A DNA stretch of 64,000 bases from Escherichia coli. Lineage in GTDB: Bacteria; Pseudomonadota; Gammaproteobacteria; Enterobacterales; Enterobacteriaceae. The stretch lies in the NCBI RefSeq assembly GCF_030013595.1, contig NZ_CP122768.1; one strand, 5' to 3'. Both the position numbers and the translations under genes were made by a program. The number at the start of each line of letters is the position of its first letter. Position 1 is the first letter of the stretch. The notes below the pieces were generated by a model. It was not told where the DNA came from, did no database searches, and was given only the letters and a program-made list of their open reading frames with translations. Positions 19,910 through 64,000 of the stretch are shown piece by piece.

Positions 19910-19911
19910 GG

Positions 19912-40539: not shown

Positions 40540-40773
40540 GTGGGATATCTGCCCAACAGCAGCGACACGCCGGTGATCAAAATCAGCGCCAAATGGCTGA
40601 GAGAAGCGGGATTTGAGATCGGCACGGGCGTTACCGTGAAGATCCCGGAAGGTTGCCTGATCCTGCTTGCGGATAACAACGGAGTACAGGAACTGAGGAA
40701 GGAACTTTATAAGGTTAAACAGGCTGTTAAGGGGATGCGTGACGGGATGTTTAGTGTGCTGAACGAAAGTTAA
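40540..40773 (+). CDS. SymE-family toxin homologue (AbrB-fold), N-terminus ambiguous
   Basis: PVIKISAKWLREAGFEIGTGVTVKIPEGCLILLA resembles the SymE core; homology continues upstream in frame to a stop at 40480; an ATG at 40463 is in a different frame. Confidence 0.5.
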   Translation: MGYLPNSSDTPVIKISAKWLREAGFEIGTGVTVKIPEGCLILLADNNGVQELRKELYKVKQAVKGMRDGMFSVLNES

Positions 40774-40819: not shown

Positions 40820-41068
40820 TTAGCTTAAAAGTATTTTTTCGATATATTCACTAACCTTTGAATTAACTCCTGATATATATTCATTATCTTTACCAGAGTA
40901 AAATTTTAAAGAACCTTCCAAATTATCATGAAGAACAAGAAGATCATAAGCAAGTAATTTTGGGATAAGCGAAGCACTTTGATAATCAGTCATTACTTTA
41001 TCAAGTGACATATATAGCCTATCAATTATGTTTGTATCTAAATCATCCGCTAATCTAATCATTTCCAC
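40820..41068 (-). CDS. Hypothetical small protein (82 aa, AT-rich)
   Basis: ORF with distinct AT-rich codon usage, bounded by the terminator and the IS end; no recognisable domain. Confidence 0.4.
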   Translation of the reverse strand: MEMIRLADDLDTNIIDRLYMSLDKVMTDYQSASLIPKLLAYDLLVLHDNLEGSLKFYSGKDNEYISGVNSKVSEYIEKILLS

Positions 41069-41107
41069 TACATCAATGTAAGCGACTCGTCAGAACCGTA
41101 TTGATAT

Positions 41108-42679
41108 TTACTGAGAGCTCAGATCAACTTTCCAGGGCAACAGATCGCGTACCCGGTTTGCCGGCCAGTCCTGGATATGTTCAATGACGTAACGCAGCCA
41201 CTTTTCTGGCTCCACATTGTTCAGACGGCATGTGCCGATCAGCGAGTACAACACCGCCGCATGTTCACCACCGCTGTCGGAACCCGCGAACATCCAGTTT
41301 TTCCGGCCTACGGCCACTCCCCGTAAGGCGTTCTCTGCGATGTTGTTGTCGATTTCCACCCAGCCATTACTGCAGTACACGTTCAGTGCATCCCACTGTT
41401 TCAGCAGGTATGCGAACGCTTTTGCCGTATCTGAGTGACGCGACAGTGTTTTCATCTGTTGCTGTATCCAGTCATACAGTGACTGCATCAGTGGCGCGGC
41501 TCTGGCTTTTCTTGCCGCCAGACGCTGTTCTGCTGAACAGCCCCGGACCTCTGCCTCGATGGCATACAGTTCACCGATACGCTGCAGGGCTTCCGTGGTG
41601 ATGTAGGTGGGCGCTCTTGCATGCACATCGTGGATTTTTCTCCGGGCATGAGCCATACACGCGGCTTCCGTTATTCTGCCGGATTCGTATAACGCCCGGT
41701 AACCACCGTAAGCATCGGCCTGAAGCACACCGCTGTAACCGGCCAGGTGATTTTGTGGATGGATACCTTTCCGGTCCGGACTGTACGCGAACCAGACCGC
41801 CGGGGGCATCTGTGAACCGGCGTTACGGTCATCACGGACGTAGACCCACAGCCGGGCTGTCCGGGTTTTACCGCTGCCCGGCTCCTGGACCGGGACGGGG
41901 ATATCATCAGCATGGACTTTACCGGGCATCAGCACATACTGGCGCAGGACGTCATACAGCGGCTCCAGCAGTTCAGCAACAGCACCTGTCCAGCGCCCCA
42001 GTGTGGCACGGCTCAGCTCCACTCCCTGACGACGGTATATTTCTGACTGGCGGTATAACGGCAGATGGTCTGCATATTTCCCGGTGACAACATGGGCCAG
42101 AAGCCCCGCTCCGGCATAACTGCGTGCAATGGGTTTTGAAGGTACTGGTGCCTGTACGATATGGTCGCACCGGCAACAGGCCTGTTTCGGACGTTGTGTT
42201 TCGATAACCTTAAAGGCGCTGCTGATAAGCTCCAGTTGCTCTGACACATCACATCCCAGAGAACTGAGTTCACCACCACAGGCAGGACAGCATTCCTCTT
42301 CCGGCCGGATAACCCGGGTTTCACGGGGAAGTGAGGCCGGTAACGGTTTACGGGCTGAAGACTGGCGCAGGGCGGATGGCAGTACCGGGTCATATTGCTC
42401 ACCCAGCGTTTCCGCCATTTCTTCCTGAAGTGCGCTGATTCGCTCCTGTGCTTCCTGTATCTGCCGTTCGGTTTTTGCACGAAGTTTTTCTGAGCTTTTA
42501 CCGAACTGCATACGTTGCAGTTTCGCAACCAGCGCCTTCAGCCGGTTGATTTCGGAAGCATAAGCCGCCACCCGCTGTGAGAGCAGGCGGTTGTATTCAG
42601 CCATCTGGCGGATGGTGTCCTGTTGCGTCTGCAACAGTGCCCGCAGGCGGGCGTTCTCATGAGCAAGTGAGGTGTCCAT
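41108..42679 (-). CDS. IS66-family transposase TnpC
   Basis: 523 aa; N-terminal coiled coil, Cys-rich zinc-finger region, DDE-type catalytic core. Confidence 0.9.
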
Positions 42680-42698
42680 ATCCTCACTTTACAACGGG

Positions 42699-43046
42699 TT
42701 ATATGCGGATTCCAGCGCGTTCCGTTCGTTTCGGGTGCTTCCAGTTGATACCTTCAAGAAGCATGGATAACTGAGCCGGAGTAAGGTGCACCTTGCCGTC
42801 ACGGGTGACTGGCCAGACGAAGCGGCCCCGCTCCAGGCGTTTGGTGAAGAGGCACAGTCCGTCACTGTCAGCCCACAACACTTTTATCTGGTCACCCCGG
42901 CGTCCGCGGAAGATGAACAGGTGTCCGGAGAACGGGTCATCCTTCAGGACGTTCTGAACTTTTGATGCCAGGCCGTTAAAGCCATTTCGCATATCGGTGA
43001 TACCTGCAACCAGCCAGATACGCGAACCTGCAGGGAGAGATATCAT
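42699..43046 (-). CDS. IS66-family accessory protein TnpB
   Basis: 115 aa; overlaps the tnpA stop. Confidence 0.85.
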   Translation of the reverse strand: MISLPAGSRIWLVAGITDMRNGFNGLASKVQNVLKDDPFSGHLFIFRGRRGDQIKVLWADSDGLCLFTKRLERGRFVWPVTRDGKVHLTPAQLSMLLEGINWKHPKRTERAGIRI

Positions 43047-43720
43047 CAGTGGCTGCTCCCTTTTATTTCGCGGATAAGTGTCTGTAATAACGCCGGCGTC
43101 AGTTTACCTTTAAGCCTGAGAGTTCCGGCCGGCAGAACCAGCTCACAACACAGACTGTCGGACGGTGTATTTATCTGCTCTGGTTCCTGTGCGGGGGCCG
43201 GGATTTTATTATCCGGCTCCGGCGTTAACGTCACGGGAAGCAGTGCCGGCATATTTTTTCCGGAAGGCAGCAGGCCACCTTTCCGGTATTGATGGCGCCA
43301 GTTGAAGAGCAGGTTATCGTTGATTCCGTTTTCCCGGGCGATCTGCGCCACACAGGCTCCGGGCTGCAGTGACTGCTCCACTAAGGCGATTTTAAACTCA
43401 TAAGGGAAGTTGGGCCGCCGGGGACGTTTTTTTACCACGGGGGCTTCGGATATAACGGTGCTTTCAGGACGTACGACTGGTACCGTGGAAAATTGTCCGT
43501 AAAGGCAGGCATCAAGTTCCTGCTCCGACATGCCTGCGGGCAAAGGCCACGAAAGGCCAGCTCTCCGAAAGCGCACGAACATACTACAAACTGTTGATTT
43601 TGGTACACCCAGGCGACGCCCGGCCACAACCCGGGGTAAATGTTCTTCAAAGTGAAGACGTAAAGCTTCAGTGATCCAGGTCCGGTGTTTCATACGATAG
43701 TGTCCATTAAAAATGGACAT
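43046..43720 (-). CDS. IS66-family accessory protein TnpA
   Basis: 224 aa; N-terminal HTH-like region; first ORF of the IS66 triplet. Confidence 0.8.
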   Translation of the reverse strand: MSIFNGHYRMKHRTWITEALRLHFEEHLPRVVAGRRLGVPKSTVCSMFVRFRRAGLSWPLPAGMSEQELDACLYGQFSTVPVVRPESTVISEAPVVKKRPRRPNFPYEFKIALVEQSLQPGACVAQIARENGINDNLLFNWRHQYRKGGLLPSGKNMPALLPVTLTPEPDNKIPAPAQEPEQINTPSDSLCCELVLPAGTLRLKGKLTPALLQTLIREIKGSSH

Positions 43721-43772
43721 TATTTTTGTAGAGCCGGAGGAAACAGACCAGACGGTTTAAATGAGCCGGTTA

Positions 43773-44237
43773 CTATTCAGCTTCATAAAGCTTTTTGAAC
43801 ATGGGGCTTTGATCCCAGGCGATCCCTTTGTAACGCTTCATATTTTTCCGCAATTCATCCTTTGAAAGATTCATAAAACGGATTTTTAATTTTTCATCGG
43901 TTTCAGTGTTGTAAACCAAATGTTCCATCCCACGCCAGGAGGACTCCAGTTTCTGAAATTCCGGATGACTCAGGATTAGTTTGATCTGCTCAGTTAATTT
44001 GAAATCGATCTGCTCAATAATCGCAGCAATACTTTTATAAGCGTCGTCACTGACGGTGACGGTATTTGTCAAAGCCTGTTGGGCCAGCGTCTGAACTGCT
44101 GCCTCAACAGCCTTTGCTGCCTGAGGTGTCTTGGGACGGAAGGCTTTATCCAGGAGCGAATCAAATTCAGTGTCCTGATAGGCAGTGGTTTGCGCAGCAG
44201 AGAGTTCGCCAGTCGCCAGAAGAGTATCGTTTACCAT
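43773..44237 (-). pseudogene. tssC: T6SS sheath large subunit TssC, 3'-truncated by the IS66 insertion
   Basis: Only about 154 N-terminal residues (ends ...SPMFKKLYEAE, which I recognise as the start of the conserved TssC core) before the IS terminal repeat creates a stop. Confidence 0.8.
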
Positions 44238-44261
44238 GAAAGTTCCTTAATAAAATCGCAG

Positions 44262-44807
44262 TTAGTCTGCTGTTCCCGTTTCACCTGATAAGACACTTTC
44301 CTGTTGAGCGACAGGTTTTGGCGCACTAGCCAGAGCTTTCAGTAACGTAGGGTCTTGTAATAGTTTGTTGATAAGATTTTCTGCTCCCGCTTTACCATCC
44401 ATGTAGGTTTGTAGGTTGGCAAGCTGAGTACGCGCTTCCAGCAGCTGGTTCAGGGCATCCACCTTACGGGCAATCTGCGCAGGCGAAAAATCGTCCATAT
44501 TCTCTAACGTGATATCGACCATTAACTGCCCTTCGCCCGTCAGCGTATTGGGGACAGCAAACGCCACGCGCGGCGCAATGGCTTTCATCCTCTCGTTGAA
44601 GTTATCGATATCAATATCAAGGAATTTACGATCGGTGACCGGCGGCAGCTCTTCACGCGGTTTACCCGCCAGGTCGGCCAGCACCGCCATGACAAACGGC
44701 AGTTCGATTTTTTTCTCGGAGCCGTAAATCTCAACGTCATACTCAATCTGCACGCGGGGCGCGCGGTTGCGGGCAATAAACTTCTGCGCGCTGTTGTTGA
44801 TAGCCAT
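44262..44807 (-). CDS. tssB: T6SS sheath small subunit TssB
   Basis: 181 aa; PRVQIEYDVEIYGSEKKIELPFVMAVLADL is the TssB signature. Confidence 0.9.
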   Translation of the reverse strand: MAINNSAQKFIARNRAPRVQIEYDVEIYGSEKKIELPFVMAVLADLAGKPREELPPVTDRKFLDIDIDNFNERMKAIAPRVAFAVPNTLTGEGQLMVDITLENMDDFSPAQIARKVDALNQLLEARTQLANLQTYMDGKAGAENLINKLLQDPTLLKALASAPKPVAQQESVLSGETGTAD

Positions 44808-44868
44808 AATCCTTCATTTCCTTATCAGTCAGCCGACGACCACCTGGGGAGTGGCCCGACGGTACAGT

Positions 44869-45159
44869 TTAAAAATCATACGCAGAGAGTATTTTTATAA
44901 TCTCTTTGTTTTCTTTGTACTTTTCCCGAAGCACAGGGAGTGATTTCTTCGCCGGAGGACACCAGGTATCAACCCCCTTTTCGATGTCTCTTTTATCCTT
45001 CTCTGGTAAAGAACTGTCCCATTCACCAGCAAGATGCTGGCACATTTCCGCATTACTCAGAAAATGCTGTACATCCTGTGGTAAAGACGGTTCCCCCTGA
45101 ACACTGAAAGCGAACATCATTAACAGGAATGTCCACAACACCGGATAACGAAATGTCAT
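44869..45159 (-). CDS. Small secreted protein, candidate immunity protein
   Basis: 96 aa; signal peptide (FLLMMFAFSVQG), two Cys; directly downstream of the M15 peptidase gene. Confidence 0.5.
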   Translation of the reverse strand: MTFRYPVLWTFLLMMFAFSVQGEPSLPQDVQHFLSNAEMCQHLAGEWDSSLPEKDKRDIEKGVDTWCPPAKKSLPVLREKYKENKEIIKILSAYDF

Positions 45160-45161
45160 AC

Positions 45162-45725
45162 TTAATGTCCATCAATTGACCAGTGGGGTATATCTGTATT
45201 TCCGCCTACAAATTTTCTGACGCCGTAACCCAGACCTACCGCCTGAAGCTGGGCATTCATTCCGGTTCGATGTAGTGTATTAATTGCAACATTCTGACCA
45301 TTGCTCCCCGCAATTGTTAATGTTCCGCTCCAACTGATATTCATATCTATCGCAGTACCGCGTGTATGGTTGGAGCTCAGTGCAGGCGCGACATTCAGAT
45401 TATTCATACCATAGGCCGTAACCATAGCCTGCGCCGCTTCAAGCGAGGCTTGCTCAGTCGGGTGAACCCACTCAATATCCACCCCCTCCATCGCCGGGAC
45501 GTTTTTTGCCTGAACGATTTCCTGAGCAATCAACCATGACCAGTGCATGAGATATGCTCTGGCGGGAGGGCGATATGTTGCAGAGATACTGACCCTTGCA
45601 CGCGCATTACCAAGCGCGCGCAAAAAATTATCTACCGATGCACGAAAAGTCCCCTGCAAATCATTAGTGGAAGAACTTCCAGGAAAGCGACTGACCCACA
45701 GTGCGCCACTTAATTCTTTTGCCAT
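45162..45725 (-). CDS. LAS/M15-family zinc peptidase, candidate peptidoglycan-targeting T6SS effector
   Basis: 187 aa, no signal peptide; SNHTRGTAID fits the SxHxxGxAxD zinc-binding motif; C-terminal IPHWS. Confidence 0.6.
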   Translation of the reverse strand: MAKELSGALWVSRFPGSSSTNDLQGTFRASVDNFLRALGNARARVSISATYRPPARAYLMHWSWLIAQEIVQAKNVPAMEGVDIEWVHPTEQASLEAAQAMVTAYGMNNLNVAPALSSNHTRGTAIDMNISWSGTLTIAGSNGQNVAINTLHRTGMNAQLQAVGLGYGVRKFVGGNTDIPHWSIDGH

Positions 45726-45737
45726 AAGGATGCTCCA

Positions 45738-48371
45738 TTAATCCGTTTCAAAAATAATCTGTTCATCCTCATCAACACGAATGCGGATTTGCGTGATGGC
45801 CGTTTTCTCTGTCATCGCCTGCAACCAATAACGGGACAGTTGTGGGAGGATATGTTGTTCGATATAGCCGATGAGCAAACGAGCGCCGGTCTCGTGCATC
45901 GGGCAGCGCGACACAATATGCGTAATCAGTTCATCGCCATACACCAGTGAAACGCCATGCCGCTCCGCCATCCGATCCATCAATCTGCCAAGATGCAGGC
46001 GGGCAATAACACCACGCGCGGTCTCATCCAGCGGTAAATAAGGAATAACCGTCACACGCCCCAGGAAAGCCGCCGGGAAGTGTTTACGTAACTCCGGCAT
46101 TAACGCCTCTTTTAACCCTGCCGAATCGGGCATCAGCGCCGGATCTTCACAGAGCTGGCTGATAAGTTCCGCCCCCGCGTTAGTAGTCAACAACAGCGTG
46201 GTATTTTTGAAATCGATGTGGACACCTTCGCCATCTTCCATCGCCCCCTTATCAAACACCTGGAAGAACAGCTCGTGGACGTCGTGATGGGCTTTTTCAA
46301 TTTCATCTAGCAATACCACGCTCCAGGGATGGCGGCGTACCGCTTCCGTCAACACACCGCCTTCGCCATAGCCGACGTAGCCGGGCGGCGCGCCTTTCAG
46401 AGTGGAGACTGTGTGAGACTCCTGATACTCGCTCATGTTGATGGTGATCAGATTCTGTTCACCGCCATAGATTGCTTCTGCCAGTGCCAGCGCGGTCTCA
46501 GTCTTGCCTACTCCGGACGGCCCGGCCAGCAAAAAGACACCCACAGGCTTACGCGGGTCACCTAAACCCGCCCGCGCGGTCTGGATACGCTCGCCAATCT
46601 GCGCCAACGCATCCATCTGCCCGGTAACACGCTGCGCCAAACGGGTGGGCAATTCCAGTATCTGACTGGCTTCATCTTTCACCATCCGTCCGGCGGGAAT
46701 ACCGGTCCAGTCGGAGACAATCTCTGCCACCACGGTTGCACTGACTTCCGGGTACACGACAGGGTTTTCACCCTGCCAGCCTCTTAATGCCGTTTCTGCC
46801 TGTTGTAGAGTGATTTCGTCGCGCTCGCCAGGCGCTGCGCCGCGTTGCTCCTGTAAACTGCGAACCAACTCCAGTTCCTGCTGCCACCGCGCTTCGGTGT
46901 CAGAAAGATCGGCATTAAGCGATATAATCCGCGCCGTCAGTACATCGCCCCGCTCCGAGCGGATACCCATTTTTTCCTGCTTTAATAACAACTCCTGCTC
47001 CAGTTCGGCAGCGTTGAGCTGCTGGCGCAGATACTGGACTCTCGCAGGCGGGGTATGCAGCGACAGCGCTACACGGGCCGCCGCCGTATCCAACAGGCTG
47101 ATGGCCTTATCCGGTAGTTGCCGGGCCGGAATGTAACGGTGAGAAAGCTGTACGGCGGCGCGCACGGCCTCATCAAGAATCAGGACATCATGGTGTTCTT
47201 CAAGCGTGGTGACTAATCCGCGCACCATCTCAACAGCCGCAACCTCTTCCGGCTCAGCAACCTGCAATACCTGAAAACGCCGGGTCAGCGCCGGATCCTT
47301 TTCGATATGGCGTTTGTACTCGCTCCAGGTGGTTGCGCCGATGGTGCGCAGAGTGCCACGCGCCAGCGCCGGTTTCAGCAAGTTGGCAGCATCCCCCGTA
47401 CCGGATGTACCACCAGCGCCCACCAGGGTGTGAACTTCATCAACAAAAAGTATCACCGGCTGCGCCGAGCGCGCGGCCTCTTCCAGCAAAGCTTTCAGGC
47501 GGGATTCAAATTCACCCTTCATGGACGCCCCAGCCAGCAGCGCTCCAACATCCAGTGACAGCAACCGCACGTTACGCAGTGAAGGCGGCACTTCCCCCCC
47601 GGCAATCGCCAGCGCGAATCCTTCCACCACTGCCGTTTTCCCGACCCCCGCCTCGCCGGTCAGCAGCGGGTTGTTCTGGCGACGGCGCAGCAGAATATCC
47701 GTCATAGTACGGATCTCGTGTTCGCGGCCGGTGACCGGATCGATATTGCCTTCACGGGCCAGCGCAGTCATGTCCTGGCAGTATTTCGCCAGCGCGGATT
47801 TACTTCCGGTTGATTCGCCGGCAAAGACCTGGCTAGCTTCCCCCGGTACTGCAGAATTTAAATCCGAGCCGTCATAAGGCATTTCTGTTAATTCAGGAGA
47901 TGAAGTGATTAAAGACGGAAGAATATCTAATAGTTCATCTACCGGTAGCTCTGCCAATGGCGCACAAATATTTTTTAACACCCGACACAATTCTGGCGTG
48001 GTTAACCAGGCAAGTAATAACCATCCACTACGAATTTTTTGATCGCCAAAGCGGATACTTGCCAACATCCAGGCTTTTTCAACAGAAAGATCGATATGAT
48101 GGGAAAAATCGTTAATTACACTCGCTCCGGCAGGCAATATATTCAATTGCTGAATTAACGCCTTCTCAACATCAGCAGATGTTATTTGATAATGTCGAAG
48201 CACATTGTGAATGTCATTCTCTGGTTGTTGTATTAACTGATGCAACCAATGCGTCAGTTCGACATAAGGATTAGCGCGTAATTTACAGAACGTCGTCGCA
48301 GATTCCAAAGATCTAAACAAAGATTTGGTTAGCTTTCCATACAGTGCACTGCGCGAAACAGGAGTGTCCAT
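45738..48371 (-). CDS. clpV: T6SS AAA+ ATPase ClpV (TssH)
   Basis: 877 aa; two AAA+ modules (GEAGVGKT, GPSGVGKT) and a ClpV-type N-domain. Confidence 0.9.
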   Translation of the reverse strand: MDTPVSRSALYGKLTKSLFRSLESATTFCKLRANPYVELTHWLHQLIQQPENDIHNVLRHYQITSADVEKALIQQLNILPAGASVINDFSHHIDLSVEKAWMLASIRFGDQKIRSGWLLLAWLTTPELCRVLKNICAPLAELPVDELLDILPSLITSSPELTEMPYDGSDLNSAVPGEASQVFAGESTGSKSALAKYCQDMTALAREGNIDPVTGREHEIRTMTDILLRRRQNNPLLTGEAGVGKTAVVEGFALAIAGGEVPPSLRNVRLLSLDVGALLAGASMKGEFESRLKALLEEAARSAQPVILFVDEVHTLVGAGGTSGTGDAANLLKPALARGTLRTIGATTWSEYKRHIEKDPALTRRFQVLQVAEPEEVAAVEMVRGLVTTLEEHHDVLILDEAVRAAVQLSHRYIPARQLPDKAISLLDTAAARVALSLHTPPARVQYLRQQLNAAELEQELLLKQEKMGIRSERGDVLTARIISLNADLSDTEARWQQELELVRSLQEQRGAAPGERDEITLQQAETALRGWQGENPVVYPEVSATVVAEIVSDWTGIPAGRMVKDEASQILELPTRLAQRVTGQMDALAQIGERIQTARAGLGDPRKPVGVFLLAGPSGVGKTETALALAEAIYGGEQNLITINMSEYQESHTVSTLKGAPPGYVGYGEGGVLTEAVRRHPWSVVLLDEIEKAHHDVHELFFQVFDKGAMEDGEGVHIDFKNTTLLLTTNAGAELISQLCEDPALMPDSAGLKEALMPELRKHFPAAFLGRVTVIPYLPLDETARGVIARLHLGRLMDRMAERHGVSLVYGDELITHIVSRCPMHETGARLLIGYIEQHILPQLSRYWLQAMTEKTAITQIRIRVDEDEQIIFETD

Positions 48372-48703
48372 CTGTTACACCTAATGATGTAAGAACATAT
48401 AAATGATACATAAACATAACTGTACCGATTAAAACTTCTAATTAATAGAATTATCAAAAAGGCCGAATGAAACAATGATGCATATCACAGAACACAATGT
48501 AATATAGCAGGTAGTATCTTTTTCATGGTGATATTCAATAGAGCAAGCCAATTTCATACATACCATGAATATATTAAATTGAAAATCGCCACTATATATT
48601 TCCGCGAAAACTTATATTGATAAAGTAAATTGATCAGCATTGCTTATCTAAAAATTTAGAAAACTTATTCTTTTGAAAGAAACATTCTACACAGTGATAC
48701 ACA

Positions 48704-49624
48704 ATGAAACCAAATATTACGTGGGGACTCCAAAAAATACAGGCGCACGGGATCGCCGATAACACAATTTACGCGACTGAAGGAACCCAAATTATCTTCA
48801 CCGTTACCTCCCCCTGGATTCCTGTTTTTGAGGTGAATGATGATGTAAAGATTGCCCTCAGTCTGACCCGCCACGAAGAAGCATGGTGGATTATCAATCA
48901 GTCTACCGAATATTGCTGTACGGTAAACGACCAGATTGTGGAACCTCATCACCGTATGCGTCTGAATGAAGGCGACCTGATAGAATGGGGGTTATCTTCA
49001 TGGTGCCTTGTGCACGGCAATCCATCATCTCCGGACCTGAGCGCAGTAAAAACGACATCGCAGACTGCCACCATGTCGGAAACAATAACCGAATATCTGG
49101 ATCTGGATTGGTTCAGGCAGCAGCATCTGACATCACAAAATCCATTCGATATCATTCCTGTTCATGGAGCCTCCTCCACTGGAGAAGATGCTAAAAAAGA
49201 AAATGCCCTGACTCGACTTTATCAGGAATACCGCGAGGCGTTGTTATCTCCTGAACAAGATCTTCATCGCCATGCTGATCCTTTTCCCTTTAACGAAGAG
49301 CCCTCCTCACAGGATCTGGATTCATTGCGTGATCTGGTCACTGAAGCCGAGACATTGCAGGATATGGTCACTGGCGGGTTAAGCATTGACGCTATTCTCG
49401 ATGTCCTGGACGCCACCGGCGAAGGGGAAACCGCCTGGCCTGCCGAAAAGACGCCCCCAGATATCCTGCACCTGCTATCCCCGGAATGCGCACCGGAAAC
49501 AGCGCATAACACCGTTCTGCCCGACCTGACACGCAAAGAGCATCGCATCATTGGCATTGACATTGACAGCCATTATCGGATAAACCCGGCACAACACGGA
49601 GAGATATCTCATGACAAACAATAA
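48704..49624 (+). CDS. T6SS-associated FHA-domain protein (TagH/Fha-like)
   Basis: 306 aa; N-terminal region resembles an FHA fold; heads the plus-strand T6SS operon. Confidence 0.55.
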   Translation: MKPNITWGLQKIQAHGIADNTIYATEGTQIIFTVTSPWIPVFEVNDDVKIALSLTRHEEAWWIINQSTEYCCTVNDQIVEPHHRMRLNEGDLIEWGLSSWCLVHGNPSSPDLSAVKTTSQTATMSETITEYLDLDWFRQQHLTSQNPFDIIPVHGASSTGEDAKKENALTRLYQEYREALLSPEQDLHRHADPFPFNEEPSSQDLDSLRDLVTEAETLQDMVTGGLSIDAILDVLDATGEGETAWPAEKTPPDILHLLSPECAPETAHNTVLPDLTRKEHRIIGIDIDSHYRINPAQHGEISHDKQ

Positions 49625-50441
49625 CGAGCTACCGGCTACCCTGTCGGCGCTGCTGCGGGATTATTCCGTGGCGGAGGGCATTCAAATGGCAGAACAGCAG
49701 GTCAGGATGCACCCGGCGCAGGCCTCCCGCCGCCACAGCCTATTTCAGTTATTGTGCGTGGCAGGCTACTGGTCGCGGGCACTGCAACAGATCCAGCTAT
49801 GCGCCCGGATGGACGCAAATTATACCCGCGAAGCGCAGGTATTTGGCGAGCTGATACGCTGTGAGATATACCGCCACGCCTGCTTTCAGGGAGAACAGCG
49901 GCCCGATTTTATTCTCCCGCCGCCCGCCTGGATGGAGGATCTGCTGACCGCCCTCGCCTGTAACGCTCGTGGTGAAGCGCAGGAAGCTGACGCCCACCGC
50001 AGCCGCGCACTTGAGGCCATAACAGATACTGCAGGGCAGTGGAATGGTGGCGCATTTGACTGGATTAGCGACAGCGACTCCCGTACCGGTCCGGTACTCG
50101 AACTCATCGCGGGCGGAGTATATATCTGGCTGCCGTTTTCACAAATCTGTTCGCTAAAATCGCCGCGGCCTGCGCATCTGACCGATTTGATCTGGAAACC
50201 CGTCAACGTCACACTGAATAATGGCGACACACACAGTGCCTGGCTGTTTTCCCGCTACAGCGGCTCTGAAAAGGCTGCCGACTCCCTGCGTCTGTGCCGG
50301 GAAACGGTCTGGCAGGACGGGCCGGGAGAGACTCTGGTACAGGCGCTGGGTCAGAGGGTGTGGCTCACCGGTCACGGCGATATCAGCCTGCTGGATTTGT
50401 CCACCTGTACCTTTAACACCGCTGAAGGAAGCGACGCGTGA
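49611..50441 (+). CDS. tagJ: T6SS accessory protein TagJ (ImpE family)
   Basis: 276 aa; pattern LFQLLCVAGYW ... GPVLELIAGGVYIWLPF matches ImpE/TagJ. Confidence 0.7.
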   Translation: MTNNNELPATLSALLRDYSVAEGIQMAEQQVRMHPAQASRRHSLFQLLCVAGYWSRALQQIQLCARMDANYTREAQVFGELIRCEIYRHACFQGEQRPDFILPPPAWMEDLLTALACNARGEAQEADAHRSRALEAITDTAGQWNGGAFDWISDSDSRTGPVLELIAGGVYIWLPFSQICSLKSPRPAHLTDLIWKPVNVTLNNGDTHSAWLFSRYSGSEKAADSLRLCRETVWQDGPGETLVQALGQRVWLTGHGDISLLDLSTCTFNTAEGSDA

Positions 50442-50932
50442 GCGCTTCCCGCCAGCGTCCGGGCAATCACCTGCTGCCCACGCTGTTTGACCGCCTGTGT
50501 GATGATGCCCCAAACCAGAAACGCGACCACGATATCAGCGTCAGCCCGGTTCAGCTTAAGGAGATCATTCGCCGGGATTTGTCATTTCTGCTCAACACCG
50601 TCAGCCATGAAGATGATATTGATGCTGCACGTTATCCGGACGCGGCAGCGTCCGTACTGAACTACGGCCTGCCGCCACTGGCGGGCAGCTTTCTGTATGA
50701 ACACAAGTGGGACGATATTCGCAGGGCCATTTTGCGTACCATCATCCGGTTTGAACCCCGGCTGAAAGCGTCCACCCTGCAAATCATCCCACTTCAGGAT
50801 GAGCGCCACCAGAGCGGCCATAACACATTACAGTTTGAAATTCGCGGCGAGATCCTCACGCAGCCCTACCCGATGGCATTCCGGGTACGCAGCGCGCTGG
50901 ATATGGAACAGAGCCGCATTACGTTTTTTTAA
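50438..50932 (+). CDS. tssE: T6SS baseplate protein TssE
   Basis: 164 aa; LLPTLFDRLCDD N-terminal motif; GTG start overlapping the tagJ stop. Confidence 0.8.
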   Translation: MSASRQRPGNHLLPTLFDRLCDDAPNQKRDHDISVSPVQLKEIIRRDLSFLLNTVSHEDDIDAARYPDAAASVLNYGLPPLAGSFLYEHKWDDIRRAILRTIIRFEPRLKASTLQIIPLQDERHQSGHNTLQFEIRGEILTQPYPMAFRVRSALDMEQSRITFF

Positions 50933-50947
50933 TTCAGAGAGAAACCG

Positions 50948-52830
50948 ATGGATCCACGGCTACTGGAATACTACAACCGCGAACTGAGCTATCTGCGGGA
51001 AACGGGAGCCGAATTTGCCGCCCGTCATCCTAAAGTCGCCGCCCGACTGGGTATGCAGGGAACGGATATTGCCGATCCGTATGTGGAGCGAATGGTCGAG
51101 GCCTTCAGCTTCCTGACCGCCCGCACGCAGCTAAAAATTGACGCTGAATTCCCCCGTTTCACCCAGCGTCTGCTGGAAGTGGTCAGCCCCAATTACGTCA
51201 CACCCACGCCCTCAATGAGCGTGGCGCAGCTTCATCCCAATCCGGAAGAAGGCGATCTGGCGAAGGGATTCACCGTCCCGCGCAACACGGCCTTTTTTTC
51301 CGCCATTCCGGAAGGCGAAAGTACCGCCTGCCAGTTTCGTAGCAGCCAGAATGTGACGCTGTGGCCGCTTGCCATCGAAGAGGTGCGGCTGACCGCCGCG
51401 CCGCCGGATATGCCTGCCCTGCACCGCTACCTGCCAGCCAACATTCACGTCGCTGGTGCGCTGCGTATTACCCTGCGCACCTTTGGTGAACTGACGTTCA
51501 GTCAGCTTGCAGGGCTGAACAAGCTGCCATTTTATCTCTGCGGCGAGGAGCGCACGGCCTCACACCTGTTCGAACTACTGCATACCAGCGCCATCGCGAG
51601 CCTGGCTGGCATTCCGGGGCATTTTGACGGCGCACTGGATGTGAATCTGAAACAGCCCGTTATGTACGAAGGCCTGGATCCGGATCAGGGACTGTTGCCG
51701 CTGGCGTGGAATGTGTTTCACGGCCATAACCTGCTACATGAATATTTTACCTGTCCGGAACGCTTCTTTTTTTCACCCCGACAGGCCTGTCTGCCGGGTT
51801 ACAGAAAATTAACGGCGGCGTGGCGGAGATTGTTATCCTGCTGAACCGCCTGCCGCCGGACTGGCTGATCCACCAGACAAACGCGGCACAGTTCAGCCTG
51901 TTCTGTACCCCGGTTATCAACCTGTTTCCCCGCGTCGCCGCCCGGATCGATGTCACGCACAGCACGACGGAACAGCATCTGGTGGTGGACAGAACCCATC
52001 CGCTGGATTATGAGGTGTTCTCGGTCCAGGAAGTGGAAGGGCTGGAAACTGACACCACACGGAAGATGGCCTTTCGCCCGCTCTACCACACCCGCAATAA
52101 TGATGAAGGCAATCACGGACGTTATTTTTCCCTGCGCCGGGAGCCGCGCCGGTTGTCGGAAAATGCCCGCCGCTATGGCACCCGCACCTCCTATACAGGA
52201 TCAGAAGTGTTCCTGTCGCTGGTTGACCAGTATGAAGCGCCGTACCCGGAAAATCTGCGCCATATCACCATCACGGCTATGGTCACCAACCGCGATCTGC
52301 CCTGTCTTATTGCCCGCAATGGACGGGACGATCTGACCGTGGATGCGGCCATCCCGGTGGCGGGCGTGGGGCTTATCCGTCCGCCGCGTCCGCCGCAGCC
52401 TCCGCTGGCTGAACGTGAAATGGCCTGGCGGTTGATCCGCCAGTTATCCTTTAACTATCTGCCGCTGGCCGATCTGGATCACCGTACCGGTGGTCAGGCG
52501 CTGCGCGATCTGCTTAACCTGTTTATTCCGGCGCATGACAGTCCGCAGTCGCGCCAGGTGCGCAGCCTGATTGGCTGCAACACCACCCCGGTCACCCGCC
52601 GTCTGCCCGGTTCCGGGCTGCTGGTCTATGGGCGCGGCGTCAGTTGTGAACTGACCGTGGATGAGGAGGGGTTCTCCGGTATCAGTCCGTATCTGTTCGG
52701 TCTGGTGTTGGAGCACTATATCGCCCGTCATGTTTCCATTAATACCTTCTCGCAGATGACGCTGCACAGCATGCAGCGCGGCAAAATTATGACCTGGCCT
52801 GCCAGGGCGGGACAGCGGGGAAGCGTATGA
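50948..52830 (+). pseudogene. tssF: T6SS baseplate protein TssF, frameshifted in a T7 homopolymer (51767-51773)
   Basis: Two overlapping ORFs (50948-51844 frame 2; 51820-52830 frame 1) together give a TssF-length protein; an eighth T would restore ...ERFFFFTPTGLSAGL... Confidence 0.7.
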
Positions 52831-53822
52831 GCGACGATTTCACTCAGGCGCAGGAAACCCCCTGGCGTTACGGTTTTCTGAACCTGATGCGCCGCGTGGA
52901 TGTGCAGTTGTGTACTGTTCCGGCAGGCAACACCTGGCAACCACGGATGGAAAAATTTCGCCTCGGACAAACTCCCGCGCTGACCTTTGCGCCACGGGAA
53001 ATCGCCAGTGTGAGCTGGCAGGAAGAGCGGCTGCACATCAGTTTGTACAGTCTCGGGCTGTGGGAGCCGAACGGTCCACTGCCGCTGCACTACACCGAAC
53101 TGGCGCGCAACCGGACTGAAAGCCGAAGAGACCCGACGCTAACCCGTTTTTCTGATCTTTTTCATCACCGCTGGCTGACGCAGTTTTACCAGGCATGGCG
53201 CAGCGCCCAGTCCGCTGGGGGCGGTCTGGATAAACCACAACATGACCGTTTTGCCTTTTATATCGCCAGCCTCAGCGGGCAGGATTTGCGGGAGAGCGCC
53301 GACAGCCCGTTGCCGGATCACGCTCGCCTGGCGGCATCGGCCCATCTGGTGCGTGAGTCCCGCAATCCGGACGGTCTGGCCACCACGCTGGCGCACTATT
53401 TCGGTGTACCTTTCCGGATACAGGAGTATGTCCTGCACTGGATAGCCGTGGCGGACGATGAGATCACCCGGCTGGGGATGCCAGCCCCCTCTTCCGTTAT
53501 TGGCAACGGTGCACTCATCGGCCAGGCCGTGCCGGACATGCAGTATAAGTTCCGGCTGGTTATCGGCCCGCTGACGCTGGAGGATTACCGACGTTTTCTG
53601 CCTGGCGGCAATAACCTGCCAGTCCTGACAGAACTGGTCCGCGCCTTTAGCGGTTTTGAATACTGCTGGGAAATTGAGCTACAGCTAAAGCCCCACGCCG
53701 CCCCTCCGGCTGTTACCGGTGGTTCGTACCAACTGGGCTGGACCGCATGGGCGGGTAAAGCCATGCACGAAAACCCGGTGACGGGCATGATTTTCGAACC
53801 AGAACACTACCTGGCGCACTGA
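52827..53822 (+). CDS. tssG: T6SS baseplate protein TssG
   Basis: 331 aa after tssF; TssG-like N-terminus. Confidence 0.8.
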   Translation: MSDDFTQAQETPWRYGFLNLMRRVDVQLCTVPAGNTWQPRMEKFRLGQTPALTFAPREIASVSWQEERLHISLYSLGLWEPNGPLPLHYTELARNRTESRRDPTLTRFSDLFHHRWLTQFYQAWRSAQSAGGGLDKPQHDRFAFYIASLSGQDLRESADSPLPDHARLAASAHLVRESRNPDGLATTLAHYFGVPFRIQEYVLHWIAVADDEITRLGMPAPSSVIGNGALIGQAVPDMQYKFRLVIGPLTLEDYRRFLPGGNNLPVLTELVRAFSGFEYCWEIELQLKPHAAPPAVTGGSYQLGWTAWAGKAMHENPVTGMIFEPEHYLAH

Positions 53823-53832
53823 GGATAATTTA

Positions 53833-54879
53833 ATGGATACATCCCTGTCTGACCCAATTTCGGCAGAATGCCCCTGCGGCCCGGATCTGGAGTACGATCC
53901 GGAATACCTGCTACTGTTCACGCGCGCCGCACCGCGTGAAGAAGCGCAATACGGCGATTTTGTCAGTACGCCGGAAACCATTAACTGGGCGGAGCTTGAG
54001 CGGGATGCCTGCCGACTGCTGACGCGCAGCAAAGATATCCGCATTCTGGTTGTCCTGCTGCGCTGCCGTATCCAGCAGGCCGGTGCCAGGGGACTGGCGG
54101 AGGCGCTCGCGCTGCTGGAAACGTTGTGCGCCACGTACCCGAACGCCATCCATCCTCAACTGCTCGCGACTGAAGATATCACCGCCGAAGAGGCGGCAGT
54201 GGCACGTAGTAACGCCCTGGCGGCGTTGCTGGACCATGAAGGCGTAATAGCGGATATTCGTGGCATTACACTGTCAAACAATGCTGCCATACGCCTTCAG
54301 GTACGGGATGTGGAGCGTTCGCTGTCTGCATCACGCCCGGCGGATGCGCTGGCACCAGAATCGGTACGCCAGCAACTGGCCGACCTGGAGGCGCGCGGCA
54401 CACTGCCGCTGGATGCCTTTCGCCAGGCCGCAGAGACCACTGAGCGGCTGCAACGCCATGCGCGTGAAACGCTGAATGACCAGGCACCGAACCTATCCCG
54501 TCTGACACAATTGCTGGCCCTGTTGCCGGGAGCGATACGGACCACCACGCCGGAGATCCTGCCACAACCAGTGGCTGAACAGCCGGAGAGCACCACCATC
54601 GTTCATACTGAACAGATATCATCAGAGCAGATTGCGCTACCGGTGCATATCGCGGAGGAAATATCACCGATGTCCGGCGCAGACCCCCGGCAGATCCGCG
54701 ACCGGAACGACGCGCTGGAACGCCTGCGTGTCATCCGTCGCTGGTTTGAGCACAGCGAACCGAGCAGCCCGACCATTCCTTTGCTGCGCCAGGCAGAACG
54801 CCTGGTCGGAAAACGCTTCTCGGAGGTAATAAATGAAATTCCAGTAGAACTGCTGGAAAAATGGGATGCGCTGGAGTAA
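53833..54879 (+). CDS. tssA: T6SS protein TssA (ImpA N-terminal domain)
   Basis: 348 aa; ImpA_N-type motif CGPDLEYDPEY; gagga ribosome-binding site. Confidence 0.8.
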   Translation: MDTSLSDPISAECPCGPDLEYDPEYLLLFTRAAPREEAQYGDFVSTPETINWAELERDACRLLTRSKDIRILVVLLRCRIQQAGARGLAEALALLETLCATYPNAIHPQLLATEDITAEEAAVARSNALAALLDHEGVIADIRGITLSNNAAIRLQVRDVERSLSASRPADALAPESVRQQLADLEARGTLPLDAFRQAAETTERLQRHARETLNDQAPNLSRLTQLLALLPGAIRTTTPEILPQPVAEQPESTTIVHTEQISSEQIALPVHIAEEISPMSGADPRQIRDRNDALERLRVIRRWFEHSEPSSPTIPLLRQAERLVGKRFSEVINEIPVELLEKWDALE

Positions 54880-54885
54880 CAGAAG

Positions 54886-54917
54886 TGGCCAGAATTTATA
54901 TTATCTGGCCATTTTTT
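54886..54917 (+). terminator. Rho-independent terminator after tssA
   Basis: tggccaga-(10 nt loop)-tctggcca followed by tttttt. Confidence 0.75.
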
Positions 54918-55010: not shown

Positions 55011-55087
55011 TGGCGGAACGGACGGGACTCGAACCCGCGACCCCCTGCGTGACAGGCAGGTATTCTAACCGACTGAACTACCGCTCC
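55011..55087 (-). tRNA. aspV: tRNA-Asp (GUC)
   Basis: Reverse complement is the 77 nt E. coli tRNA-Asp, GGAGCGGTAGTTCAGTCGGTTAGAATACCTGCCTGTCACGCAGGGGGTCGCGGGTTCGAGTCCCGTCCGTTCCGCCA. Confidence 0.95.
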
Positions 55088-55219
55088 GCGTTGTGTTCCG
55101 TTGGGAACGAGGCGAATATTACGGATTGCCTCTCCCTTCGTCAACGGTTTTTCTCATCTTTTGAATCGTTTGCTGCAAAAATCGCCCAAGTCGCTATTTT
55201 TAGCGCCTTTTACAGGTAT

Positions 55220-55951
55220 TTATGCCCGCCAGAGGCAGCTTCCCCCCTTCTTCTGCACCAGATCGAGACGGGCTTCATGTGCTGCAAGCTCTTCATCTGT
55301 CGCAAAAACAACGCGTAACTTACTTGCCTGACGCACAATGCGCTGAATTGTTGTTTCATCTTGTTGCTGTTGTGTCTCTCCTTCCATCGCAAAAGCCATC
55401 GACGTTTGCCCACCAGTCATCGCCAGATAAACTTCCGCAAGGATCTGGGCATCGAGTAATGCCCCGTGCAACGTTCGTTTACTGTTATCTATTTCGTAGC
55501 GGGCACATAACGCATCGAGGCTGTTGCGCTTACCGGGAAACATTTTCCTCGCCACCGCAAGGCTATCGGTGACCTTACAGAAGGTATTGGTCTTCGGAAT
55601 ATCGCGCTTAAGCAACGAAAACTCGTAGTCCATAAAGCCGATATCGAACGCTGCGTTATGGATCACCAACTCCGCGCCGCGAATATAGTCCATGAACTCA
55701 TCGGCTACTTCGGCAAACGTGGGCTTATCGAGCAAAAATTCATCGGCAATACCATGTACGCCAAAGGCTTCCGGATCCACCAGCCGATCGGGTTTGAGAT
55801 AAACATGGAAGTTATTGCCCGTCAGGCGACGGTTCACCACTTCAACGGCACCAATCTCAATGATCTTGTGGCCTTCATAGTGCGCGCCAATCTGGTTCAT
55901 ACCGGTAGTTTCGGTATCGAGAACGATCTGGCGTGTAATTGCAGTGCTCAT
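55220..55951 (-). CDS. dnaQ: DNA polymerase III epsilon subunit (3'-5' proofreading exonuclease)
   Basis: Start at [17 protein letters not shown]; DEDDh exonuclease motifs; divergent from rnhA. Confidence 0.95.
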
Positions 55952-56015
55952 AGCGGTCATTTATGTCAGACTTGTCGTTTTACAGTTCGATTCAATTACA
56001 GGAAGTCTACCAGAG

Positions 56016-56483
56016 ATGCTTAAACAGGTAGAAATTTTCACCGATGGTTCGTGTCTGGGCAATCCTGGACCTGGGGGTTACGGCGCTATTTTACGCTATC
56101 GCGGACGCGAGAAAACCTTTAGCGCAGGCTACACCCGCACCACCAACAACCGTATGGAGTTGATGGCCGCTATTGTCGCGCTGGAGGCGTTAAAAGAACA
56201 TTGCGAAGTCATTTTGAGTACCGACAGCCAGTATGTCCGCCAGGGTATCACCCAGTGGATCCATAACTGGAAAAAACGTGGCTGGAAAACAGCAGACAAA
56301 AAACCAGTAAAAAATGTCGATCTCTGGCAACGTCTTGATGCTGCGCTGGGGCAGCATCAAATCAAATGGGAATGGGTTAAAGGCCATGCCGGACACCCGG
56401 AAAACGAACGTTGCGATGAACTGGCTCGTGCCGCAGCGATGAATCCCACACTGGAAGATACGGGCTATCAAGTCGAAGTTTAA
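56016..56483 (+). CDS. rnhA: Ribonuclease HI
   Basis: 155 aa from [23 protein letters not shown]; matches E. coli RnhA. Confidence 0.95.
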
Positions 56484-57202
56484 GCCTGTGGTTTACGACA
56501 TTGCCGGGTGGCTCCAACCGCCTGGCGAATTCGTGGCTTGTTTTTACTCTGTTTCATCGGATTTAGCGTTAAAGGAATAGTCCGTTTCCGGGCGACAATA
56601 AGTTGTAAGCAACCAAGCGCAGGAATATGCGCATTCAATAGTTTTCCACCGTGTTTGTTCCACGGGAGAACGTGGAAACGGCTGGCGTGTAGCACTTCAA
56701 AATTCAACAAAGAGAGCCAGTCCAGCTGCCGCATCAGAGTAAACATCCGGCTATTATAGGGCGAGGTTTTGCGCAATACCGGCACAAGTTTTCGTAATCC
56801 CATTAAACTGATGGGATTGAAGCCACTAATCACCAGCCAGCCATCATCAATCAATACCCGATCGGCTTCACGCAATAAACGATGCGGATCGGTGCACCAC
56901 GGCAATGTATGTGCCAGTAGACAAACATCAACGGATTTATCGGCAAAAGGAAGATGAAGTGGGTCCGCCTGCACCTGGACGGGCATTCCTTGCGCAGAAA
57001 CATTCACTTGATGAGAAACCGCGCACGCTTCGCAATTGATTTCTGCGCTTAAATTGCCAATCTTAAGCAGATGAAAACCATACATTTTAGTGAACCACGG
57101 GTTGAGCTGGCGCTCCAGCGCCTTGCGATAAAGCTCTCCCCAGGGCAAATCGCCCCAGCAATCAGGAGCCACGACAGTTTGAGGGACTCTTGCCGGTTTC
57201 AT
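56480..57202 (-). CDS. yafS: SAM-dependent methyltransferase YafS
   Basis: Start chosen at [11 protein letters not shown] (the ORF allows 6 more codons upstream); conserved K-12 neighbour. Confidence 0.85.
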
Positions 57203-57232
57203 CACAACCTTCCGTTTCACACTGAGAGGTAA

Positions 57233-57991
<759 letters not shown>

Positions 57992-58062
57992 TAAAACTTT
58001 CTTGTCATCGGCTCCGTTCGCCGTTATGATCGGTCGTCTTTTAAGCAACTATTGACACACAC

Positions 58063-59421
58063 ATGAAGGCAAAAGCGATATTACTCGCCTCTGTCCTGCT
58101 CGTGGGTTGCCAGAGTACCGGCAACGTTCAACAGCACGCACAGAGCCTTTCTGCAGCTGGTCAAGGGGAAGCAGCAAAGTTTACAAGTCAGGCACGATGG
58201 ATGGACGATGGGACGTCTATCGCGCCAGATGGTGACTTGTGGGCTTTCATTGGCGACGAGCTAAAGATGGGAATTCCGGAAAATGACCGGATTCGCGAAC
58301 AGAAACAGAAATATTTACGCAATAAGAGCTATCTCCACGATGTAACTTTACGGGCAGAGCCGTATATGTACTGGATAGCCGGGCAAGTTAAAAAACGTAA
58401 CATGCCTATGGAACTGGTACTACTACCCATAGTGGAGAGCGCTTTTGATCCTCACGCAACGTCTGGCGCCAATGCAGCAGGCATCTGGCAGATCATTCCG
58501 AGCACGGGGCGCAATTATGGTTTGAAACAGACCCGCAATTATGACGCGCGTCGCGATGTTGTTGCTTCAACAACTGCCGCGCTGAACATGATGCAGCGTC
58601 TGAACAAGATGTTTGACGGCGACTGGCTTCTGACCGTAGCGGCTTATAACAGCGGCGAAGGTCGAGTCATGAAGGCAATTAAAACGAACAAAGCGCGTGG
58701 GAAATCCACGGACTTCTGGTCGTTACCGTTGCCGCAGGAAACGAAGCAGTACGTGCCTAAAATGCTGGCATTGAGTGATATTCTCAAAAACAGCAAGCGT
58801 TATGGCGTACGTCTGCCAACGACCGATGAAAGCCGTGCTCTGGCGCGTGTGCACCTGAGCAGCCCAGTTGAAATGGCGAAGGTTGCAGATATGGCGGGGA
58901 TTTCCGTCAGCAAGCTGAAGACATTCAACGCTGGCGTGAAAGGCTCCACGCTGGGCGCAAGTGGTCCGCAGTACGTGATGGTGCCAAAGAAGCATGCAGA
59001 TCAACTGCGTGAATCTCTGGCTTCGGGCGAAATTGCTGCTGTACAGTCGACGCTGGTTGCCGACAATACGCCGCTTAACAGCCGTGTTTACACCGTACGC
59101 TCTGGCGACACGCTTTCAAGTATCGCTTCACGTCTCGGCGTTAGCACCAAAGATTTGCAGCAGTGGAACAAACTGCGCGGCTCTAAGCTGAAACCAGGCC
59201 AAAGTCTGACGATTGGCGCAGGTAGTAGCGCACAGCGGTTGGCAAACAACAGCGATAGCATTACTTATCGTGTGCGCAAAGGCGATTCGCTTTCAAGCAT
59301 TGCTAAACGCCACGGCGTGAACATCAAAGATGTGATGCGCTGGAACAGCGATACTGCGAATCTGCAACCAGGCGATAAGCTGACGTTGTTTGTGAAAAAC
59401 AACAACATGCCAGATTCCTGA
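58063..59421 (+). CDS. mltD: Membrane-bound lytic murein transglycosylase D
   Basis: 452 aa; lipoprotein signal LLVGC; transglycosylase domain plus C-terminal LysM repeats. Confidence 0.95.
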   Translation: MKAKAILLASVLLVGCQSTGNVQQHAQSLSAAGQGEAAKFTSQARWMDDGTSIAPDGDLWAFIGDELKMGIPENDRIREQKQKYLRNKSYLHDVTLRAEPYMYWIAGQVKKRNMPMELVLLPIVESAFDPHATSGANAAGIWQIIPSTGRNYGLKQTRNYDARRDVVASTTAALNMMQRLNKMFDGDWLLTVAAYNSGEGRVMKAIKTNKARGKSTDFWSLPLPQETKQYVPKMLALSDILKNSKRYGVRLPTTDESRALARVHLSSPVEMAKVADMAGISVSKLKTFNAGVKGSTLGASGPQYVMVPKKHADQLRESLASGEIAAVQSTLVADNTPLNSRVYTVRSGDTLSSIASRLGVSTKDLQQWNKLRGSKLKPGQSLTIGAGSSAQRLANNSDSITYRVRKGDSLSSIAKRHGVNIKDVMRWNSDTANLQPGDKLTLFVKNNNMPDS

Positions 59422-59437
59422 CAAACCAGATAATGAA

Positions 59438-59467
59438 AGGCACCGATTCCCCCGGTGCCTTTTTTAT
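59438..59467 (+). terminator. Rho-independent terminator after mltD
   Basis: ggcaccg-attcccc-cggtgcc followed by tttttt. Confidence 0.8.
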
Positions 59468-60238: not shown

Positions 60239-60314
60239 TGCGCTGTCCTTTTATTGTTTGATTAAAAAGGGCAGCGCCAAACGTTGGTCTGCCCTGTGGC
60301 AGACATGACATACC

Positions 60315-61166
<852 letters not shown>

Positions 61167-61355
61167 CTACTGTTATAGGGATTTTAGCTCACTCTTTCAA
61201 CGAGCAATTGTATATTGTTATGTAAGCAAGTGCTTACACCGGTCAGAATTTTGCTCATTATTGAGAACATTAAATCGGATGACATATCACGCATCCTGAT
61301 GGTTTAATGACAAATAAATTCAAAATATCTCATCTATTTTGCAACAGGAGCAAAA

Positions 61356-63070: not shown

Positions 63071-63192
63071 AATATGCCTCTTTTAATGCTATTTTCGTTA
63101 ACTGAGGTGATTATGGGCTTCAGACTGTTGCGGAAAAAGAGCGTAAAATGCAGAGGATTTTTGCGATTCTGGCAATAATAGATATACAGACG

Positions 63193-63226
63193 AAAAAAAA
63201 CCTCGAGCGTTAACTCGAGGCTTCTT
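63193..63226 (-). terminator. Rho-independent terminator after aspU / rrnH
   Basis: Minus strand reads cctcgag-ttaacg-ctcgagg followed by tttttttt. Confidence 0.8.
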
Positions 63227-63232
63227 AATAAG

Positions 63233-63309
63233 TGGCGGAACGGACGGGACTCGAACCCGCGACCCCCTGCGTGACAGGCAGGTATTCTAACCGACTGAAC
63301 TACCGCTCC
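63233..63309 (-). tRNA. aspU: tRNA-Asp (GUC)
   Basis: Second copy identical to aspV, distal gene of the rrn operon. Confidence 0.95.
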
Positions 63310-63361
63310 ACCGAATTCTTTTACAACCACCGGTTTTATGACCGGCTTACTGCTTAATTTG

Positions 63362-63573: not shown

Positions 63574-64000
<427 letters not shown>

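Follow-up and report, generated by a model that had tools for sequence, protein, structure and literature searches.

The 64-kb stretch of Escherichia coli chromosome analyzed here (contig NZ_CP122768.1; hereafter the window) contains, beside the tRNA-Asp gene aspV, the remnant of a type VI secretion system (T6SS) island. This region is very probably the aspV-proximal 11.2 kb of a ~38-kb island of the SPI-6 (Salmonella pathogenicity island 6) type, which was recently truncated by an insertion sequence (IS) and no longer encodes a secretion machine. The remnant (43773-54879) extends to the aspV-side limit of the island and comprises two divergent operons; at its other end it meets an intact copy of the IS66-family element ISCro1 (41078-43773, - strand), where 26,726 bp are lacking relative to HCP5S3_I2 (NZ_CM149870.1), a closely related pig isolate. 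Statements of absence apply to the window alone.

Five of the 13 core T6SS genes (tssA, tssB, tssE, tssG and tssH) are intact, with full-length NCBIfam or Pfam matches and lengths equal to those in intact islands. TssC and TssF fall short of the full length expected in a functional T6SS, the former being cut at 43773/43774 and the latter split at codon 276. What is left of tssC (43773-44237, - strand) is the first 154 of 504 codons, closed by a stop codon that the IS junction itself provides; this fragment matches NCBIfam TIGR03355 at profile positions 3-132 of 473 (122 bits; cut-off, 271.5) and Pfam VipB at positions 3-82 of 301, while the intact gene measures 1,515 nt in VCSW7 (NZ_CP082357.1), which carries a complete island, and in HCP5S3_I2. 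Genes for Hcp (TssD), VgrG (TssI), TssJ, TssK, TssL and TssM were found nowhere in the 64 kb; all of them are encoded in the 26,726 bp that the window lacks and HCP5S3_I2 retains. Positions 1-41077 are collinear with HCP5S3_I2 at 99.8-99.9% identity, and the corresponding stretch of that genome contains Flag-2 flagellar and housekeeping genes only. Because a tube, a spike, a membrane complex and a full sheath are all lacking, the remnant cannot fire. An initial annotation, made from the sequence alone, had described a degenerate aspV-linked T6SS island with a truncated tssC and without hcp, vgrG or tssJKLM; NCBIfam and Pfam matches bear out its gene content and coordinates, and the absences extend to the whole window. 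Pipelines that count matches to tssA, tssB, tssE, tssG and tssH would mistakenly record a T6SS at aspV in this strain.

The remnant has the layout of SPI-6, which is likewise aspV-linked in Salmonella enterica (PMC2907695): it lies next to aspV, with one operon beginning at tssH and a divergent operon of the order tagK-tagJ-tssEFGA. SPI-6 and the intact E. coli island also agree in having Tae4/Tai4 encoded just downstream of tssC and Rhs encoded after vgrG (PMC10469887), and both carry Tlde1-type and glucosaminidase/Tgi2P-type modules. The latter two modules reside in variable region 2 (VR2), downstream of tssM, in SPI-6 (PMC10469887), whereas in the intact E. coli island tssL and tssM flank the tlde1 pair, and of the two modules only the glucosaminidase one is located past tssM. 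The proposed kinship of the island to SPI-6 draws, by analogy, on this common architecture and on the shared effector families. Islands of this type are present in ~111-115 of 5,426 complete E. coli genomes (~2%).

ISCro1 and the 26.7-kb deletion

The closest complete genomes are those of the pig isolates HCP5S3_I2 and LCP30S3_I5, with 99.8-99.9% identity over all unique parts of the window. In HCP5S3_I2 (hereafter the sister), the two flanks that the window brings together are 26,726 bp apart, with collinear, 99.8-100% identical sequence on either side; its identity to the window breaks off at position 41077. As read in the sister, the lost segment comprises the 3' 1,050 nt of tssC, tae4/tai4, hcp, tssJ, tssK, tssL, a tlde1-domain pair, tssM, tagF, a glucosaminidase-domain pair, vgrG, a gene for a DcrB-related (Eag-type) chaperone, a full-length rhs with an ankyrin-repeat partner, and several orphan rhs tips with small (immunity) open reading frames (ORFs). 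The complete island of VCSW7 occupies the same aspV-yafV site, with identical gene order and gene orientation between tssA and tssC codon 154 (99.2% identity), and the sister has the same site and order with ~99.9% identity over the remnant. The window differs from both in that the distal 26.7 kb (tssC-3' through rhs) are gone, ISCro1 stands at the break, and a run of seven T residues (T7) occurs in tssF. Comparison with intact aspV-linked islands, which the initial annotation had recommended as a check, thus reveals the deletion; the annotation had recognized the truncation of tssC and missed its cause, ISCro1, which lies just beyond the region it covered.

Over the 11.4 kb common to the window and the sister island there are 7 single-nucleotide polymorphisms (SNPs), one in-frame 6-nt indel (CATTGA, at 49555-49560, near the 3' end of tagK) and the 1-nt deletion in tssF, a divergence of ~0.06%. 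These few differences support the recent inactivation or ongoing loss that had been suggested from the sequence, and the surviving genes are intact because the inactivation is very recent. The sister island has decayed by routes of its own: its hcp is interrupted by an internal stop, the interval between tssH and tagK holds an IS3-family element, and ISCro1 together with a further IS3 element breaks up tagK. Judged from these sequences, the same T6SS island has been inactivated repeatedly and independently within one pig-associated clone. IS activity in the clone is also apparent from ISCro1 itself, as the copy disrupting tagK in the sister is identical to the window copy (100% identity over 2,638 nt).

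The extent of the deletion also decides a second suggestion of the initial annotation, namely that the apparatus was lost while immunity was retained. At least four effector/immunity modules were lost in a single ISCro1-associated deletion of 26,726 bp: tae4/tai4, the tlde1 pair, the glucosaminidase pair, and rhs plus orphan rhs tips with immunity ORFs. The Tae4/Tai4, Tlde1/Tldi1, Tge2/Tgi2P and Rhs variable-region modules are all present in the sister and reference islands. The suggestion is therefore not supported, and the strain is expected to be susceptible to Tae4, Tlde1, glucosaminidase and Rhs toxins delivered by related strains. The retained genes are all those between the IS and aspV; the pattern is thus positional, not selective.

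The ISCro1 copy is 2,696 bp long and has three ORFs, all on the - strand, encoding TnpA (224 aa; 43046-43720), TnpB (115 aa; 42699-43046) and a DDE transposase (523 aa; 41108-42679). It is bounded by imperfect 22-nt terminal inverted repeats that start with GTAAGCG (41078-41099 and 43752-43773), and is 99.4-99.9% identical to ISCro1 copies annotated in RefSeq. Its right end meets tssC past codon 154, where the 8-bp flank is TATTCAGC (43774-43781). Its left end, with flank ACATCAAT, meets the 3' part of a small hypothetical gene beside symE/yafV (40820-41077, - strand; WP_052318335 in the sister), the first 36 nt of which are gone; this is the left deletion breakpoint. The two flanks are unrelated, and an 8-bp target-site duplication is absent around the element. 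A missing target duplication is the signature of an IS-associated deletion.

Three other genomes have 2,699-bp copies, 3 nt longer than the window copy, which has its short form in common with the sister's copy; the tnpA product of the window copy has 224 aa vs. 225 aa in copies annotated in the other genomes. Between yafV and the deletion breakpoint is a gene resembling SymE-family type I toxins (40540-40773, + strand), which marks the distal edge of the island. In many other E. coli genomes the aspV-yafV interval is occupied by another type of T6SS, and in many of these ISCro1, often beside ISAs1, adjoins yafV; in two compared loci with this other T6SS type it is found at 10325-13023 and 9870-12568. 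ISCro1 insertions recur at the yafV end of the island.

PK-F-10122 (NZ_CM148631.1) has a simple ISCro1 insertion at the identical tssC site and in the same orientation (99.85% IS identity). There, TATTCAGC is duplicated on both sides of the element (15993-16000 and 18700-18707 of the compared locus) and the rest of the island is kept, while the window has neither the duplication nor the distal island. The island of PK-F-10122 represents an allele with 94% identity, in a different tRNA-Asp/rrn context. Since this allele continues up to the IS and the tRNA-Asp context is different, the insertion is independent of the one in the window. Import of the junction by recombination from PK-F-10122 was considered and is ruled out, as the tssC flanks there belong to the 94%-identity allele right to the IS. 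Two independent hits on TATTCAGC suggest that it is a preferred ISCro1 target site.

We propose that ISCro1 would first have entered tssC at the 8-bp target TATTCAGC (codons 154/155), a step with direct precedent in PK-F-10122. Loss of the 26,726 bp that separated the small gene near symE/yafV from the other IS end would then have followed. The deletion is evident from the comparison with the sister; it may have come about by intramolecular transposition (adjacent deletion) or by recombination with a second, directly oriented ISCro1. The data fit both routes, and either would leave one IS with unrelated flanks. PK-F-10122 may therefore offer a snapshot of the presumed intermediate, with insertion coming first and IS-associated deletion second. 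In a third step, one T would have been lost from the T8 run of tssF; the base difference is observed, and the lesion remains putative. Such an event is an ordinary, already known kind of gene-island decay, and the case represents one more route by which T6SS islands are lost in E. coli, with an IS66-family element in the sheath gene followed by a flanking deletion.

The tssF gene (50948-52830, + strand) is either a pseudogene or the product of a sequencing error. It is read in two frames, 50948-51844 and 51820-52830, matching TIGR03359 at positions 1-260 and 279-598, respectively. The sole difference from the intact gene of VCSW7 and the sister is one missing T (T8 to T7 at 51767-51773), after which the frame ends at a stop at 51842-51844. 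A change of one base in a homopolymer is as characteristic of slipped replication as it is of a sequencing error. The T7 run is either a genuine slip or a sequencing error, and fits a very recent mutation and a homopolymer error alike; the frameshift noted in the initial annotation is a real feature of the determined sequence, caused by the out-of-frame loss of one T, that may have arisen in sequencing. The conclusion that the locus is dead is independent of this lesion. Programmed or transcriptional slippage at T7 that would rescue tssF was also considered, and is irrelevant because eight other core functions are missing.

The retained 187-aa/96-aa pair

Two intact ORFs on the - strand separate tssH from tssB. 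The first encodes a 187-aa protein without a signal peptide (45162-45725), a candidate zinc peptidoglycan peptidase effector with a LAS/M15 fold; the second (44869-45159) encodes a 96-aa protein that starts with a signal peptide, matches no Pfam family and is a candidate periplasmic immunity protein. The initial annotation had listed clpV and a putative effector-immunity pair as intact; both are, and the pair is credible on the following evidence.

No Pfam or NCBIfam family, M15/VanY included, matches the 187-aa protein at E ≤ 0.01, and a sequence search of the PDB gave chance matches only (E ~1); the fold was therefore predicted and compared instead. Homologues fall into 359 clusters at E ≤ 1e-3, within the Proteobacteria, some of them named “peptidoglycan-binding domain-containing protein” by NCBI. 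In an alignment of 30 homologues, H120, D127 and H181 are invariant, in the context of an SxHxxGxAxD-like motif. The AlphaFold model built from that alignment (pLDDT 95.8) predicts a LAS fold with a His...Asp...His metal-binding triad. Against the phage endolysin Ply500, VanY/VanXY, LdcB and Serratia ChiX, TM-scores reach only ~0.4 and sequence similarity is not detectable.

Genomic context outside E. coli was compared in two cases. In Pectobacterium wasabiae, the gene for a homologue of the 187-aa protein precedes one for a 96-aa lipoprotein (lipobox LSGC) that is 49% identical to the product of the window's 96-aa ORF, and the two genes sit apart from any T6SS genes, as a free-standing module. 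In Ralstonia flaminis, a homologue is encoded after two PAAR genes and before a small ORF. The pair thus combines the features expected of effector and immunity genes, i.e., a bicistronic arrangement of a candidate toxin and a small exported protein, with T6SS/PAAR linkage. Between tssH and tssB, Salmonella SPI-6 is described as carrying a candidate L-Ala-D-Glu endopeptidase effector together with a signal-peptide partner, the effector ORF in the analyzed genomes being reported with only 32 aa (PMC10469887), in contrast to the full 187 aa here. A search of the literature on M15/VanY-type T6SS effectors found no characterized member of the 187-aa family.

The pair most likely consists of a cargo effector with predicted peptidoglycan-peptidase activity and its immunity protein in the periplasm; with the apparatus gone, the effector would stay in the cytoplasm and be harmless. 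We give roughly even chances to the more specific proposal that the pair represents an uncharacterized T6SS effector/immunity family housed between tssH and tssB, the effector being a LAS-fold (M15-like) zinc peptidase that cuts stem peptides. If this is true, the remnant would be a convenient natural source of a full-length member, a 32-aa fragment being all that is reported for Salmonella. The forward-looking value of the locus lies only in this intact candidate LAS-peptidase effector and its immunity gene.

Alternative readings

Several results weigh against a recently IS-truncated, inactive island. The left junction has no match among the 5,426 complete E. coli genomes, so that the deletion allele is seen here only, and the T7 allele is absent from all 111 complete E. 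coli genomes that carry this tssF (in a search with a 111-nt query, each best match was 112 nt in the record vs. 111 in the query). A simple scan of 48372-48703, the region between the divergent operons, for sigma-70 and terminator consensus sequences found no site, and no promoter is proposed there. In addition, the genome may still contain the 26.7 kb at another place, flanked by two ISCro1 copies that were collapsed in assembly, and another complete T6SS may be present in the same genome. The unmatched junction and the unmatched T7 allele would both be expected of an assembly artefact, in which ISCro1 copies in tssC and in the small gene near yafV were merged, the 26.7 kb between them was looped out and T7 is a homopolymer error; that ISCro1 is multi-copy and active in the clone points the same way. 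Such an artefact is nevertheless quite improbable: the window runs unbroken through the full 2.7-kb IS into unique sequence on both sides, short-read assemblers usually break at such repeats and rarely bridge them, an IS-flanked deletion without target duplication is routine biology, and the sequence itself bears no sign of a chimera. Even in this case the island would still be inactivated by the IS in tssC, though not deleted. Highly improbable, in our assessment, is selective retention of the remaining genes, whether of the 96-aa protein as immunity against a kin effector, of the pair as an addiction module, or of ClpV, TssA and baseplate parts in the service of another T6SS. All kept genes but tssF are full-length, and the pair also exists as a free-standing two-gene module in other bacteria; however, the ~0.06% divergence from the sister has left no time for decay, so that intactness is uninformative about selection. 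Moreover, four other immunity functions disappeared in the same event, exposing the strain to the toxins of its kin, and the tssF of a retained operon is already broken. A recent truncation by ISCro1 thus remains the preferred reading of the locus.

A different role can also be envisaged for the 187-aa protein, as an accessory hydrolase that, like TagX, opens the cell wall for T6SS assembly, with the 96-aa protein as its regulator. In Acinetobacter, TagX is a cluster-encoded peptidoglycan hydrolase needed for T6SS biogenesis, and VanY is mentioned in that work (PMC5061870); the 187-aa gene is likewise placed among core genes, between tssH and tssB. Yet the protein has neither a signal peptide nor a membrane anchor with which to reach its own periplasm, a small exported protein is always encoded after it, and its gene is also found away from T6SS clusters, in a two-gene module, and directly behind PAAR genes in Ralstonia. 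The Salmonella literature, too, treats the gene at the tssH-tssB position as a candidate effector/immunity module (PMC10469887). Together these points make a TagX-like function unlikely, and we retain the effector/immunity assignment as the working interpretation.

Gene inventory and neighbouring loci

The operon on the - strand begins with tssH/clpV (45738-48371), whose 877-aa product matches TIGR03345 with 1219 bits over profile positions 1-851 of 852, and continues through the 187-aa and 96-aa ORFs to tssB (44262-44807), which encodes the sheath small subunit; tssB matches the whole TIGR03358 profile (190 bits), has the length seen in intact islands and is followed by the truncated tssC. 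The divergent intergenic (promoter) region (48372-48703) is 332 bp long with 28% GC, against 53% for the window, in agreement with the AT-rich spacer between two divergent operons that had been annotated initially.

On the + strand, tagK (48704-49624) encodes 306 aa, vs. 304 aa in VCSW7, and matches the NCBIfam TagK family NF033418 with 547 bits. This is the gene first listed as encoding an FHA protein, a label that is loosely acceptable, since the N-terminus is FHA-like below threshold (Pfam FHA, 19.6 bits against a cut-off of 20.7). It is followed by tagJ of the ImpE family (49611-50441; PF07024, E = 6.9e-41), an identical gene having been named TagJ by RefSeq, and by tssE (50438-50932), which matches TIGR03357 (68 bits) and Pfam GPW_gp25. 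Downstream of tssF are tssG (52827-53822; PF06996, E = 6e-92) and tssA of the ImpA family (53833-54879; PF06812, E = 3e-30), the latter with the same length as in intact islands. Apart from tssF, all genes of this operon are intact. A 94-nt ‘tRNA-His(GTG)’ called by ARAGORN inside tssF (52613-52706, + strand) is almost certainly a false positive, the Rfam tRNA model being silent at its gathering threshold.

The gene for tRNA-Asp(GTC), aspV (55011-55087, - strand), was identified by ARAGORN and by the Rfam tRNA model (67.7 bits), and represents the attachment side of the island. It lies 131 nt beyond tssA and is followed by dnaQ and rnhA, matching the aspV locus of reference genomes. The stretch from 55088 to 64000 spans dnaQ to rrnH, running from dnaQ and rnhA through dkgB to aspU (63233-63309), the 5S rRNA gene and the end of the 23S rRNA gene.

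The window is oriented in reverse of K-12. From left to right it begins with a Flag-2 lateral-flagella cluster (~1-33000), followed by yafL, dpaA, yafJ, lpcA, fadE, ivy and yafV, which ends at 40426; the symE-like gene, the region of interest and aspV come next. The Flag-2 cluster appears complete. Between its flgA and flgM genes are a DNA cytosine methyltransferase gene (12027-13451, + strand) and a type II restriction endonuclease gene (13539-14744, - strand). The Flag-2 lysine-N-methylase and glycosyltransferase ORFs (15740-19360) differ in length from those of the sister; there, the methylase carries a frameshift according to its annotation, and the glycosyltransferase has 823 aa, vs. an 898-aa ORF in the window. 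Over positions 1-20000, the window is 14 bases longer than the sister.

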